From positions 1 to 64,000 of IMG/VR virus record IMGVR_UViG_3300033143_004594: a DNA stretch of 64,000 bases; one strand, given 5' to 3'. Position 1 is the stretch's first letter, and each line of letters starts with the position of its first letter. This DNA is from a virus. The notes beneath the pieces are model-generated. The model worked only from the letters and a program-made list of their open reading frames with translations. It did not search any database and was not told the DNA's origin. The position numbers and the translations under genes are program-made. Below are positions 57,331-61,827 of the stretch, piece by piece.

Positions 57331-60300
57331 TTAATCCACCGTATAGCTGAAAGTTACAGTAAGAGAATTCACAACGCCAGTTTTTGCAGTTGTTTTAAGC
57401 ACGATCCAAGAATCAGCCGGAATAGTTGCGTCATTAAAACTGGTAAGATTCTGCCCTGTTGTTGTATTTGTAATTGCCACAGGAGATGACAAAATATCCG
57501 TTGCGCCACCACCACCAGACCTGTCTGTGTTATGGTAGGGATCTATTGTAACTGATGGAGATGAACCTGTCACCACAGCCTGAATCTCTGTTATTGTTAT
57601 AGCAACGTAGGTAAACCCCGCTGAAACATCTTCGCCAGAGGATGGTTTTTCAAGCGTTATTGAATATAGATATGACGCGCTCACGCCAGTGTCACCCTTG
57701 ACGGTACTGTCAGCACCCGTATCGCCCTGGATGCCAGTGTCACCCTGATCGCCCTGGATGCCAGTGTCACCTTCACCAGTATCACCCTTTTGCGCCAAAT
57801 AGTCCCAATAAGTTGTCCAGCTTCCGCCAGTGCCAGGTTCATCGGAAGCACTGGAAGTATGATCTAAGACACAAACATAGGTTGAGCCATCATTGGTGAC
57901 AGTATCGTTTACTTCGTAAGAAGTGGCTGTAAGCCACTGGCCTTTCCAGGGATAAGAAGTGCCAAACTCGGGGGCCATACTGATGTCTTCGCCATTCGAG
58001 AAAGATCCAGCACCAGTTACATACTCAACCCCAATATCCCAATTCGTTCCATTGTCAGTTAATGAAGTGATCTTGAAGCTAACAAAGTCATTATCAACTT
58101 CACTAAATACCTTGAAATGATCGCTAACTGCAAACTCGCCTATTTGAGCAGCAAGATTAGCAGAGTTGCGGTCAGTTTCATGAATGTAAACAACCGTCAC
58201 GCTGGCAGGCGTAGCATTGTTAAACCTGATCTCGCCCGTTCCGGCCGGGCCAGTTGTTGTTGTATTGAAGTCATAGGGCCAGGAATAGCCACCAGCCCCA
58301 CCACCACCGCCTGTGCCAGAATCACCCTGGATACCCGTATCCCCCTGGATGCCTGTATCGCCTTCTCCAGTATCCCCCTGGTCGCCAGTGTCTCCCTTGA
58401 CCGTGCTGTCAGCACCCGTATCCCCCTGGATGCCTGTATCGCCTTCTCCCGTGTCGCCCTGGATGCCGGTGTCGCCTTCTCCGGTGTCACCCTGAATACC
58501 CGTATCGCCATCATCACCAGTATCGCCTTTGACGGTACTATCGGCCCCGGTGTCACCCTGGATACCAGTGTCACCTTCTCCGGTGTCACCCTGAATACCC
58601 GTATCGCCATCATCACCAGTGTCACCCTTGACGGTACTGTCAGCACCCGTGTCGCCCTGGATGCCGGTATCGCCTTCTCCGGTGTCACCCTGATCGCCAG
58701 TAATGCCAATTACACCCGTATCGCCATCATCACCAGTGTCACCCTTGACGGTACTGTCAGCACCAGTATCGCCCTGGATGCCGGTATCGCCATCGTCACC
58801 CGTGTCACCCTGGATGCCGGTGTCGCCTTCTCCGGTGTCACCCTGAATACCCGTATCACCCTGGTCGCCAGTGTCACCCTTGACGGTACTGTCGGCCCCA
58901 GTGTCACCCTGGATGCCAGTATCACCTTCTCCGGTGTCACCCTGGTCGCCGGTATTACCAATCACACCGGTATCCCCCTGATCACCAGTATCACCCTTGA
59001 CGGTACTGTCAGCCCCGGTATCCCCCTGGATGCCGGTGTCGCCTTCTCCGGTGTCACCCTGAATACCCGTATCGCCATCATCACCAGTGTCACCCTTGAC
59101 GGTACTGTCGGCCCCCGTGTCCCCCTGGATGCCGGTATCGCCTTCTCCAGTGTCACCCTGGATGCCCGTATCGCCATCATCACCAGTATCACCCTTGACG
59201 GTACTGTCAGCACCCGTGTCGCCCTGGATGCCAGTGTCGCCTTCTCCAGTATCGCCCTGGTCGCCAGTAATGCCAATTACACCGGTATCGCCCTGATCGC
59301 CAGTGTCACCTTGGACGGTACTATCAGCACCAGTATCTCCCTGAATACCCGTGTCGCCATCGTCACCAGTATCGCCCTGGATACCGGTGTCGCCCTGGTC
59401 GCCAGTGCCACCCTGAACACCGGTATCGCCATCGTCACCCGTATCACCTTGGATGCCAGTATCACCTTGGATGCCAGTATCACCTTCTCCAGTGTCGCCC
59501 TGGTCGCCAGTGTCGCCTTGAACGGTACTGTCAGCACCCGTGTCGCCTTGGATACCCGTGTCACCTTCTCCAGTGTCGCCTTGGATGCCGGTATCGCCAT
59601 CATCACCAGTGTCACCCTTGACGGTACTGTCAGCACCCGTGTCGCCTTGGATGCCGGTATCGCCATCGTCGCCAGTATCGCCATCGTCGCCAGTAATGCC
59701 AATTACACCCGTATCACCCTGATCGCCAGTGTCACCTTGGACAGTGCTGTCAGCACCAGTGTCGCCTTGGATGCCAGTATCACCTTCTCCGGTGTCACCC
59801 TGATCACCAGTGCTACCCTGAATACCGGTATCGCCATCGTCACCAGTATCGCCTTGGATACCCGTGTCGCCATCGTCGCCGGTATCGCCCTGGTCGCCAG
59901 TAATGCCAATTACGCCCGTGTCGCCATCATCACCAGTATCACCCTTGACGGTACTATCAGCACCAGTATCTCCCTGAATACCCGTGTCGCCATCGTCACC
60001 AGTATCGCCTTGAATACCGGTGTCGCCCTGGTCGCCAGTATCGCCCTGCGCCCCAAGCTGCCCGATTGTCCGAACACTAAGGTTGCCATGTGTCATGGTG
60101 AAATTCGTACTTGTGCCATCGGACTTCACATAGGCTTCAACATATTGAGATGCTGTAATCGCCGCAATACCAGATACTACGGCCGCACCAATCTGGTTGG
60201 CTGAACCTATTTGCCGTTCAATTTGCAAGTCGGTAACTAGAGCGCCGCCTATATAAATTCCAATAATATAAACGGTACTTACAGTACCGGAGAATGAAAA

Positions 60301-61827
60301 CGCAAAGGTTATTTCATAATCGTCGGCATTGGCTACTTGTATGCGATCATTGGCATGATCTGGCGTTGTCCCACTTGAATCGCCATTAGTATCAAATTGA
60401 GTGATTTTATAAAATTGAGTTGCAGTTGTTAGCGTTTGACCAGAAGAGTTTCCAACAACAGACATCTCGCCATAATAGGCAGCCCCAACACCAGGAATAC
60501 CAGTGTCACCCGAATCGCCAGTATCACCCTGCTCTCCAGTATCGCCAACACCTGGGCCGGTATCGCCTTGAATACCGGTGTCGCCATCGTCGCCCGTATC
60601 GCCCTGATCGCCAGTGTCACCCTCTCCGGTGTCACCCGTATCGCCCGTATCTCCCTGGATGCCGGTGTCGCCATCGCCCGTATCACCCTGATCACCAGTA
60701 TCTCCCTGGATACCAGTGTCGCCATCGCCCGTATCGCCCTGATCACCAGTGTCACCTTGGACGGTACTGTCAGCCCCGGTGTCGCCCTGGATACCCGTAT
60801 CGCCATCATCACCGGTATCACCCTTGTCTCCGGTATTGCCAATTACACCGGTATCGCCCTGATCACCAGTGTCACCTTGGACGGTACTGTCAGCCCCGGT
60901 ATCACCCTGGATGCCAGTGTCGCCATCGTCGCCAGTATCGCCCTGGATGCCAGTGTCACCTTCTCCGGTGTCACCCTGAATACCCGTATCTCCCTGGATG
61001 CCGGTGTCGCCATCGCCCGTATCGCCCTGGTCGCCAGTGTCACCGTCGCCGGTATCTCCCTGGATGCCGGTGTCGCCATCGCCGCCAGTATCGCCTTGGA
61101 TGCCAGTGTCACCTTCTCCGGTGTCACCCTGGATGCCGGTGTCGCCATCGTCGCCAGTATCGCCTTGGACGGTACTGTCAGCCCCGGTGTCGCCCTGGAT
61201 ACCCGTGTCGCCGTCGCCAGTATCACCCTTGTCTCCGGTATTGCCAATTACACCGGTATCGCCCTGATCACCAGTGTCACCTTGGACGGTACTGTCAGCC
61301 CCGGTATCTCCCTGGATGCCGGTGTCGCCATCGCCCGTATCGCCCTGAATACCAGTATCGCCCTCTCCAGTATCCCCCTGAACGGTACTGTCGGCCCCCG
61401 TGTCACCCTGGATGCCGGTATCGCCTTCTCCGGTGTCACCCTGGTCGCCCGTATCACCTTGGACAGTGCTGTCAGCACCAGTGTCACCTTGGATGCCGGT
61501 ATCACCTTCTCCGGTGTCACCCTGATCGCCAGTGTCGCCTTGAGTGCCAACTGTACCAGTATCACCTTTGAAACCAGTATCACCTTGCGAACCTGAAATA
61601 CCAGTGTCGCCCTCTCCAGTATCACCCTGGATTCCAGTCCCGGTATCACCTTGATCGCCCTGGATGCCAGTGTCACCATCGTCACCAGTGTCACCGGTCA
61701 GGCCCTGGACGCCGGTATCGCCTTCTCCGGTATCGCCTTCTCCGGTATCGCCTTGGACACCGGTATCACCCTGAGCACCACCGCCGCCACCGCCGGCACC
61801 TTTTGCTTCAAGCTCTAATAGACCCAT
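57331..61827 (-). CDS. Collagen-like (G-X-Y, mostly G-D-T) giant fibre protein with interspersed globular domains
   Basis: 1498 aa. Has two long G-X-Y blocks ([15 protein letters not shown]..., periodically interrupted by GADSTV[QK]). A C1q/TNF-like jelly-roll candidate is at DNA ~60045-60490. A CBM5/12-like module is at ~57787-57960. Also has a C-terminal globular domain. Confidence 0.9.
58290..61790. repeat. Degenerate tandem coding repeats (9-nt and ~99-nt periodicity) of the collagen-like gene, interrupted at ~60045-60490
   Basis: Repeated ggtgtcaccctggatgccggtatcgcc... units are visible throughout. Confidence 0.85.

Follow-up and report, generated by a model that had tools for sequence, protein, structure and literature searches.

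A collagen-like fibre gene with an internal TNF-like knob, linked to a glycosyltransferase-methyltransferase cassette in an uncultured tailed phage

The window described in this work is a stretch of 64,000 nucleotides of viral DNA (positions 1 to 64,000 of the IMG/VR record IMGVR_UViG_3300033143_004594), whose minus strand carries, at 57331-61827, a gene for a collagen-like protein of 1498 amino acids (aa), referred to below as the fibre. With modest confidence, we read this protein as a long virion fibre that is trimeric, built like beads on a string and most likely O-glycosylated on threonine by a co-inherited enzyme cassette; the phage is tailed and uncultured. The cassette consists of a methyltransferase (MT) dependent on S-adenosylmethionine (SAM) and a glycosyltransferase (GT) of the GT4 type. 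Judged by gene content and order in the loci compared, the linkage of the fibre, MT and GT genes is strong and specific, and the fibre is probably glycosylated, as a substrate of the neighbouring enzymes.

A broader proposal, held more tentatively, is that several unrelated tailed-phage lineages carry a mobile module in which a G-X-Thr collagen-like fibre is accompanied by a GT4 glycosyltransferase and a SAM-dependent MT (sometimes also by a sulfotransferase or a GT2 enzyme), which would O-glycosylate and decorate the collagen repeats. Such a module would be the viral counterpart of the BclA/SgtA glycosylation of the spore nap, and its product a sugar-coated, polyanionic fibre of about 300 nm.

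Architecture of the Fibre

The fibre is a modular "beads-on-a-string" protein, and its relatives shuffle the same modules. Its parts are as follows:

57331-61827, minus strand: whole fibre gene; 1498 aa, 144.9 kDa, isoelectric point 4.05, net charge about -287
61771-61827, minus strand: N-terminal peptide MGLLELEAK plus Gly linker (GAGGGGGGA), aa 1-19; candidate attachment element by putative function
60487-61770, minus strand: collagen-like block 1, GDT-rich, 26 register breaks, aa 20-447 (repeat counts, Pfam)
60061-60486, minus strand: internal jelly-roll knob, predicted TNF/C1q superfamily (BclA_C/ExsF-like), aa 448-589 (Pfam in relatives, AlphaFold2, Foldseek)
58282-60060, minus strand: collagen-like block 2, 32 breaks, alternating GADSTVx and G-E-G, Gly hinge at its end, aa 590-1182 (repeat counts)
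57952-58281, minus strand: beta-sandwich "glob" domain, aa 1183-1292 (AlphaFold2 pLDDT about 80-95; homologues)
57778-57951, minus strand: carbohydrate-binding module (CBM) of CBM5/12-like type, aa 1293-1350, with the CBM_5_12 match at aa 1297-1333 (borderline Pfam)
57697-57777, minus strand: short third collagen stretch with one GADSTVK, aa 1351-1377 (repeat count)
57334-57696, minus strand: C-terminal all-beta tip domain, aa 1378-1498 (AlphaFold2, homologues)

The open reading frame (ORF) had been described as collagen-like in an earlier note made from the sequence alone, and this was confirmed. Counted in runs of at least three, it holds 304 G-X-Y triplets (912 aa), and Pfam Collagen (PF01391) matches it with E = 1.9e-66 (220 bits, cut-off 27.2). 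The ATG is preceded by its own AGGA ribosome-binding site. An upstream 370-aa ORF lies in the frame of the fibre, and readthrough or fusion of the two was rejected because two in-frame stop codons separate them and the fibre has its own ribosome-binding site. Overlapping long ORFs of up to 695 aa, for example at 58117-60204 and 60420-61596 (both plus strand) and several out of frame on the minus strand, are not genes; they are by-products of a G-X-Y codon repeat that is free of stops.

The fibre contains 390 Gly, 275 Asp, 247 Thr and 14 Pro residues, with 317 acidic (Asp + Glu) versus 30 basic (Lys + Arg) ones. GDT occurs exactly 153 times, close to the earlier estimate of about 150, and the most frequent in-register triplets are GDT (124), GIQ (48), GDQ (23), GDD (20), GAD (20) and GEG (19). 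Asp occupies the X position in 177 of the 304 triplets (58%). Thr occupies the Y position in 134 of them (44%), which is a plurality and not the majority previously supposed.

Within aa 20-447 and 590-1176 the Gly register is broken 58 times, about once per 17 residues (34 G-x-G, 19 GADSTVx and 5 GG), and perfect triplet runs are mostly 3-8 triplets long. GEG, formerly counted as a triplet, is like GDG a Gly-X-Gly site, one residue short of a triplet, at which the Gly register shifts; GADSTVx places seven residues between glycines, one above two triplets. These +1 and -1 breaks alternate almost perfectly in block 2. Strict +1/-1 compensation as a rule for the whole protein was rejected, since block 1 has 19 "-1" against 6 "+1" breaks. 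The exact number of GADSTV(Q/K) breaks is 20. Their proposed spacing of about 33 aa holds as the mode in block 2, but regular stretches range from 27 to 45 aa, the median is about 39, and some gaps reach 69-96 aa.

At the DNA level, Tandem Repeats Finder detected periodicities of 33, 99 and 117 bp (best 88-93% identity, 2-3 copies). The 99-bp repeats, earlier taken to be prone to recombination, do exist (88-89% identity, 2.5-3 copies), but GDT is encoded by 21 different 9-mers and GADSTVx by 11 different 21-mers. The array is therefore old and diversified, not a recent, highly recombinogenic repeat, and less prone to recombination than had been implied.

A knob between two collagen-like blocks is an unusual architecture. 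The beta-rich insert, expected at about 60045-60490, was found at 60061-60486, and the C1q/TNF likeness suggested for it is correct at the level of the fold. Pfam C1q and TNF gave no match to the knob of the fibre itself, its BclA_C score is 15.6 bits against a cut-off of 38, and a PDB sequence search with the insert alone returned nothing useful; the relationship emerged only through a family profile and a fold search. A word-indexed search found one relative and an exhaustive HMMER scan 1524, in which the domain mostly forms the extreme C-terminus of otherwise varied proteins. When 71 of the knob relatives were scanned with Pfam, BclA_C matched 62 and TNF (PF00229) eight (best 4.4e-6). The AlphaFold2 model built from the relatives' alignment is all-beta, with a predicted local distance difference test score (pLDDT) of 97.6. 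Foldseek gave 186 PDB matches at E <= 1e-3 and template modelling (TM) scores of 0.6-0.73, headed by BxpB, EDA-A1, ExsFA, BclA, 4-1BBL, TRAIL and BAFF; the spike knob of phi812 and the receptor-binding domain of the short fibre of cyanophage A-1(L) are also among the best matches. Entries 8d02, 1rj7, 7r5i, 3tyj, 9eul and 8ke9 match with E 3e-6 to 2e-5 and TM 0.62-0.73. By model and profile, the knob is thus assigned to the TNF/C1q-superfamily jelly-rolls, nearest to the BclA_C/ExsF type.

The globular region, the CBM5/12-like module and the C-terminal domain announced earlier for the part after the insert are all present. The "glob" beta-sandwich bears the motif Y-x-F-x-T...APP-x-SG-x-I-x-F-NNAT and occurs in 1-4 copies in relatives. 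The CBM5/12 assignment is borderline: CBM_5_12 (PF02839) scores 23.2 bits on the full protein and 25.9 bits (E = 1e-5) on a C-terminal fragment against a cut-off of 26.2, the match to the ChiA1 chitin-binding domain 1ed7 has E = 0.013, and the stretch is poorly modelled (AlphaFold2 confidence below 50); the CBM-like modules of some relatives carry a precomputed Pfam annotation. The tip (last ~112 residues) is modelled as all-beta with pLDDT 95-98 and is the C-terminus common to more than 100 metagenomic, otherwise different phage proteins, found at 61 IMG/VR loci. A fold search with a C-terminal 315-aa model gave only generic jelly-roll and beta-sandwich matches at low TM, because the query was multi-domain.

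The relatives show how these modules are exchanged. Two loci from JGI metagenomes, L139 and L141, are syntenic with the window (identities of 56-58% for a 510-aa protein, 46-47% for the tape measure and 57-58% for a Cys-rich 396-aa protein) and also have the MT and the GT (64-67% identity). The L141 fibre (1167 aa) has the same short N-terminal peptide (MALLKAEAKGSGGGGGA) and four beta-sandwich domains, and lacks the TNF knob. The L139 fibre (L139:1-3505) has three beta-sandwich domains, one of which contains a frameshift that splits the gene into ORFs of 1254 and 289 aa, whether through mis-assembly of the repeats or because the gene is really disrupted. In an unrelated phage, L115, the 1383-aa fibre combines an N-terminal CBM-like module, a TNF knob, a CBM and the same tip with 20 GADSTV breaks. 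The 1317-aa L100 fibre (L100:6377-10327) has the same tip, GPT and GDT triplets, three CBM5/12-like modules and GPTSTVT breaks, so that the S-T-V break is conserved across triplet types. Compared in this way, the family appears as shuffled, trimer-compatible beads joined by collagen segments.

These relatives also bear on a technical explanation, namely that the long ORF is an assembly artefact, whether by repeat mis-assembly or as a chimera of a knob-ended and a tip-ended fibre gene. Repeats invite mis-assembly, the L139 fibre is split by its frameshift, and most family members carry the TNF-like domain at the C-terminus. The window nevertheless has a single uninterrupted 4.5-kb frame in which the knob leads straight into more collagen and the DNA of the repeats is diversified, and an internal knob with further collagen behind it occurs independently in L115 and in P0122, P0131, P0135, P0188 and P0242. 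We regard an artefact as very improbable.

Linkage of the Fibre to the Enzyme Cassette

The earlier note had placed modification enzymes 0.5-3 kb from the fibre and named the fibre as their candidate substrate. The MT and GT indeed lie 0.5-2.8 kb downstream, while a third gene (176 aa) is without reliable annotation. Comparative gene linkage strengthens the substrate idea; the glycosylation itself is something we infer from it.

Among 15 IMG/VR loci picked by GT homology only, a Thr-rich collagen ORF on the same strand within 10 kb was present at seven, compared with none of 53 DnaB-centred control loci (p = 6.6e-6); at a relaxed threshold, about 8 of the 10 GT loci with enough flanking sequence have a collagen ORF. 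The MT was detected upstream of the GT at 11 of the 15, and the order fibre, MT, GT (and then a 191-aa gene) recurs in L002, L003, L087, L115, L139 and L141. A second census started from 61 IMG/VR loci picked by the tip-domain profile alone. There, the cassette accompanies three of six collagen fibres, those three being Thr-rich, versus none of the 55 collagen-free ones (p = 5.6e-4, or 5.6e-3 after one duplicate is dropped).

The genomic backgrounds of the pairing differ: the window phage with L139 and L141; L115, with an SU10-type portal; L003, with a PhageMin_Tail tape measure; and a Kyanoviridae myophage. The fibre-enzyme association is therefore not a single inherited accident. In L142, a more distant relative of the window phage, positions L142:9651-11116 show a homologue of the 118-aa gene (63507-63863 in the window) directly beside the Cys-rich 396-aa gene, and the fibre, MT, GT and 191-aa genes are all missing together. 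From this adjacency, the region of about 53900-63430, from a 171-aa gene to the 191-aa gene, is taken as one insertion/deletion island of about 9.5 kb. Enlarged islands surround the fibre in L002 (3300041079), L139 (3300041085) and L141 (3300041077), with GT2+GT1 fusions, Pfam Sulfotransfer_2 and Laminin_G_3 lectin-like proteins; the L002 island also has a sugar-nucleotide epimerase and a DegT aminotransferase.

The only cultured lineage with this GT is S-CAM7, a T4-like Kyanoviridae cyanophage (homologue with 41% identity). In its genome (NC_031927, L001), positions 4075-11571 hold gp014 (986 aa) and gp015 (636 aa), which are annotated only as "hypothetical" and are Thr-rich collagen-like proteins with Thr dominant at Y. 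They are followed directly by the GT homologue, then by a 2-oxoglutarate (2OG)-Fe(II) oxygenase and a tail fibre gene; no MT homologue was detected at this locus, where the oxygenase stands instead. As in the window, Thr-rich G-X-Y genes (gp014/gp015 of S-CAM7/ACG-2014f) lie directly upstream of a GT of the same family, here among baseplate and tail-fibre genes, although their triplets are of GAT/GPT type and those of the fibre GDT. This may be a collagen-modification cluster in cultured cyanophages.

Known systems provide precedents for such pairs. In Clostridioides difficile, sgtA lies immediately upstream of bclA3, and SgtA attaches O-GlcNAc to Thr of the GPT repeats (PMC7157674); BclA is glycosylated, with O-linked glycans in its collagen region (PMC8968730). 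According to a prediction by Iyer et al., dioxygenases and sulfotransferases act on collagen-like proteins encoded together with them (PMC2938197). In mycobacteriophages, glycosyltransferases of the phage glycosylate the virion, according to the accounts of Freeman 2023 given in PMC11256854 and PMC12582341.

The same genes could be explained without any modification of the fibre. The MT-GT pair would then act on a host envelope polysaccharide (O-antigen, capsule or exopolysaccharide) for superinfection exclusion or receptor masking, and would merely share a hypervariable host-recognition island with the fibre. Remodelling of host O-antigen is the standard reading of glycosyltransferases near marine myophage tail-fibre genes (PMC7029224); the nearest curated GT4 families are polysaccharide and lipopolysaccharide (LPS) enzymes, and the larger islands of L002, L139 and L141 contain sugar-nucleotide enzymes, GT2 domains and sulfotransferases. 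However, the absence of the cassette from all 55 collagen-free fibres with the same tip indicates that it tracks Thr-rich collagen and not host-recognition genes generally. The pairing also recurs in unrelated phage backgrounds, including S-CAM7, and the fibre and cassette were gained or lost jointly relative to L142. Action on host polysaccharide fits the collagen-specific distribution less well, and we consider it unlikely.

Several points weigh against a glycosylated, triple-helical tail fibre. The locus samples are small, and the linkage statistics ignore phylogenetic kinship. Two informative GT loci (L007 and L017) have no collagen ORF, and the Thr-rich collagen fibre of L100 has no MT/GT cassette within 10 kb. 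Among curated families, the GT comes nearest to GT4 enzymes acting on polysaccharide, LPS or small molecules, in every case with a score far below the cut-off. The helix is broken about every 17 residues, with 14 Pro and a net charge near -287, so that a canonical stable triple helix is not assured. The fibre gene lies upstream of the tail genes both here and in L115, which leaves the label "tail" fibre unproven. Finally, the exact fibre protein has no record elsewhere.

Conformation of the Collagen-like Blocks

Stabilisation by proline/hydroxyproline or by charge pairs is not borne out by the composition of the fibre (14 Pro; 317 Asp + Glu versus 30 Lys + Arg; net charge about -287). The GDT-rich blocks could be imagined not as a triple helix but as a flexible tether, polyanionic and perhaps mucin-like, that connects trimeric globular nodes. 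This would agree with the 58 Gly-register breaks, with perfect runs of mostly 3-8 triplets, and with a nearly proline-free chain having Asp in 58% of its X positions. On the other hand, some 900 residues keep strictly to the G-X-Y periodicity, the Pfam Collagen score is very strong, and the regular +1/-1 alternation in block 2, together with the STV break kept in a GPT-type relative, suggests a structured repeat. Prophage collagen-like fibres of non-animal composition have, moreover, been proven triple-helical (PMC3368898). A tether of this kind seems to us rather improbable, and a much-interrupted triple helix remains our preferred conformation.

If triple-helical, block 1 would measure about 120 nm (122) and block 2 about 170 nm, at 0.286 nm per residue, and the whole fibre about 300 nm.

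Location on the Virion

PHROG tail-fibre families (phrog_6320, 5073, 366 and others) match the fibre with E down to 2e-166. These matches lie in many stretches over the collagen repeats, and the "tail fibre" label is therefore largely compositional. The fibre may instead be attached to the head or neck, as a head fibre, a collar whisker or a capsid "nap", and not to the baseplate, a placement that we take seriously without favouring it. Its gene is upstream of the genes that precede the tape measure, within the block inserted between the 118-aa and 396-aa genes that are neighbours in L142, and in L115 the homologous 1383-aa fibre and its cassette have the portal on one side and the major head protein on the other. 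The N-terminus comprises only about 9 residues, unlike the typical N-domains by which fibres are anchored to baseplates, and a predicted fibre of about 300 nm comes close to the tail length of ~296 nm that follows from the 1971-aa tape measure. By contrast, the homologous fibres of L003 and L004, which are short, are encoded where tail fibres classically are, behind the tape measure and distal tail genes as the last part of the tail module, and the PHROG families matched are those of tail fibres, though largely via collagen repeats. Gene position alone is also a weak guide, and the 396-aa and 510-aa neighbours match no known family.

Proposed Assembly and Function

In the mechanism we propose for the glycosylated fibre, the globular trimer-forming domains lying C-terminal of each collagen block would nucleate the triple helices and set their register. 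Placed after each block, they would match the C-to-N nucleation of BclA, C1q and EDA. The Thr (possibly also Ser) residues of the acidic, proline-free G-X-Y segments would be O-glycosylated by the co-inherited GT4 glycosyltransferase, and the paired MT would then modify the glycan. With proline nearly absent and a charge of about -287 per chain, the helix is expected to need help, for which Thr-linked glycans and divalent cations are obvious candidates; with its many interruptions, the helix would gain stability or hydration from the glycans and would be shielded by them. Host glycans are probably bound by the tip and the CBM-like module, and the fibre would therefore serve long-range, reversible adsorption.

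In TNF folds the N- and C-termini normally exit from the same face, so that an internal knob may produce a hairpin or a side-knob. By analogy, the conserved 9-residue N-terminal peptide might dock into a TNF-like knob, letting fibres attach to the capsid or to each other; this more speculative idea is modelled on the docking of BclA-type N-termini on ExsF/BxpB.

Genomic Neighbourhood

The window phage carries an integrase (17552-18499) and a DnaB helicase (23970-25337), both on the plus strand, as well as a tape measure and an M23 peptidase/lysin. Plus-strand genes also include replication-initiator-like and DNA-methyltransferase-like ones, and three large proteins with DNA-methyltransferase-type matches, one of 1001 aa, are encoded in the early/replication half (6772-9777, 25612-27321 and 27488-29002, plus strand). 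A nucleotide search with the fibre flanks gave no match among cultured phages.

The late operon runs on the minus strand. By product length (aa), its first part is 118, 171, 370, fibre, 173, MT (208), 176, GT (396) and 191; its middle part continues from 191 with 396, 167 (CBM5/12), 158, 510, 249, 182 and the tape measure; and its end comprises, after the tape measure, 165, 1404, 306, 181, 338, small membrane proteins and M23. The genes directly downstream of the fibre are:

56809-57330, minus strand: 173-aa ORF abutting the fibre stop; weak DUF4082 match
56175-56801, minus strand: 208-aa class I SAM-dependent MT, phrog_3603 (family profile)
55688-56218, minus strand: 176-aa protein with a P-loop hint only; homologue at the same position in L115
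54501-55691, minus strand: 396-aa GT4-type GT (Pfam Glycos_transf_1, GT-B), phrog_3408 (Pfam and PHROG)
53923-54498, minus strand: 191-aa protein, often next after the GT in related loci

The 173-aa ORF is possibly a fibre accessory or assembly protein, and small ORFs directly follow the fibre in L115, L087, L100 and L004 as well. Two regions of a 338-aa protein (34959-35975, minus strand) resemble it weakly (E ~1e-3); that protein has the classic tail-fibre position after the distal tail genes. In the MT family, Methyltransf_11/23 match 11 of 14 members, and the family profile matches UbiG. The 176-aa protein was not accepted as a sulfotransferase on a Stf0 P-loop-like hint of E = 0.72; it has no Pfam or NCBIfam match and is unrelated to the Sulfotransfer_2 gene of L002.

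The Cys-rich 396-aa protein (52733-53923, minus strand) belongs to a length-conserved (~395 aa) family of 48 metagenomic proteins, and its gene precedes those of the 510-aa protein and the tape measure, with a few small genes in between. Its family profile fails to match the major head protein of L115. Capsid, sheath and tube proteins were considered for the 396-, 510- and 370-aa neighbours, but no PHROG, Pfam, NCBIfam or PDB match was found for them. Among the small genes upstream of the 510-aa protein, a 167-aa protein (51878-52381, minus strand) carries a CBM5/12 at 26.8 bits, above the Pfam cut-off, and is about 70% identical in L139 and L141. Upstream of the fibre, a 171-aa Cys-rich protein (62913-63428, minus strand) with an N-terminal C-x2-C-x2-CC overlaps the start of the 370-aa ORF and has no family match.

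The tape measure (42140-48055, minus strand; 1971 aa) implies a tail of about 296 nm. The order of the 510-aa (49756-51288), 249-aa (48951-49700) and 182-aa (48457-49005) genes and the tape measure resembles the sheath-tube-chaperone-tape measure order of contractile tails, although none of these proteins matched a known family.

Comparison with Known Systems

BclA of Bacillus anthracis/cereus shares with the fibre a short N-terminal peptide, a G-X-Thr region and a jelly-roll of the BclA_C kind, and the BclA structures 3tyj, 1wck and 2r6q match the knob with Foldseek TM 0.62-0.67. In contrast, BclA is a spore protein and the fibre is encoded in a phage structural operon; the BclA jelly-roll is C-terminal, whereas that of the fibre is internal, with about 900 further residues and another kind of tip behind it; the BclA triplet is GPT and that of the fibre GDT with almost no Pro; and the fibre is 5-10 times longer, with a heavily interrupted helix. 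Despite the likeness to BclA suggested earlier, the fibre is not a member of the BclA family.

The cassette has its mechanistic model in BclA3/SgtA of C. difficile, where a glycosyltransferase gene neighbours a collagen-like gene whose triplets have Thr at Y (PMC7157674). SgtA combines a GT-A fold with tetratricopeptide repeats, whereas the phage enzyme is of GT-B/GT4 type and paired with a SAM-dependent MT, and the two are analogous, not homologous. EPclA/B, collagen-like side-tail proteins of enterohaemorrhagic Escherichia coli prophages, are phage-encoded trimeric fibres in which globular domains that trimerise stand on either side of a collagen domain, as proposed for the fibre. They are triple-helical by experiment (PMC3368898), and they differ from the fibre in their much shorter collagen, other flanks (phage fibre repeats, coiled coil) and lack of a TNF-like knob and linked enzymes.

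EDA-A1, C1q and collagens VIII/X also join collagen to a TNF/C1q jelly-roll, and EDA-A1 (1rj7) is among the best fold matches of the knob. Their head is terminal, whereas the fibre chain continues into a second collagen block, and no sequence-level membership of the knob in the EDA/C1q families was found (only C1q-related factor, at E ~0.05 against the knob family profile). Mycobacteriophages such as Che8 and Rita resemble the window phage in that phage glycosyltransferases modify virion proteins; in the accounts cited above the substrates are major capsid proteins, not collagen-like fibres, and the enzymes and hosts differ.

Significance

Collagen-like phage fibres and BclA-type spore filaments are both already known. 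The fibre is distinguished by its internal BclA_C/TNF-like knob, by an unusually acidic, proline-free and regularly interrupted GDT collagen, and by the mobile fibre-MT-GT module. In databases its relatives bear no annotation beyond "collagen triple helix repeat" or hypothetical, and in the literature searched no description was found of an enzyme cassette specific to Thr-rich phage collagen fibres.

The TNF-like knob lying between collagen helices is of interest to structural study. If the proposed modification is true, it would account for the stability of collagen helices that are highly acidic and lack proline, and the compact enzyme-substrate pair could be used for engineering glycosylated recombinant collagens. 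It would also matter for how phages recognise their hosts, resist proteases and are recognised by immune systems. If such fibres are glycosylated, virion glycosylation would extend well beyond mycobacteriophages.

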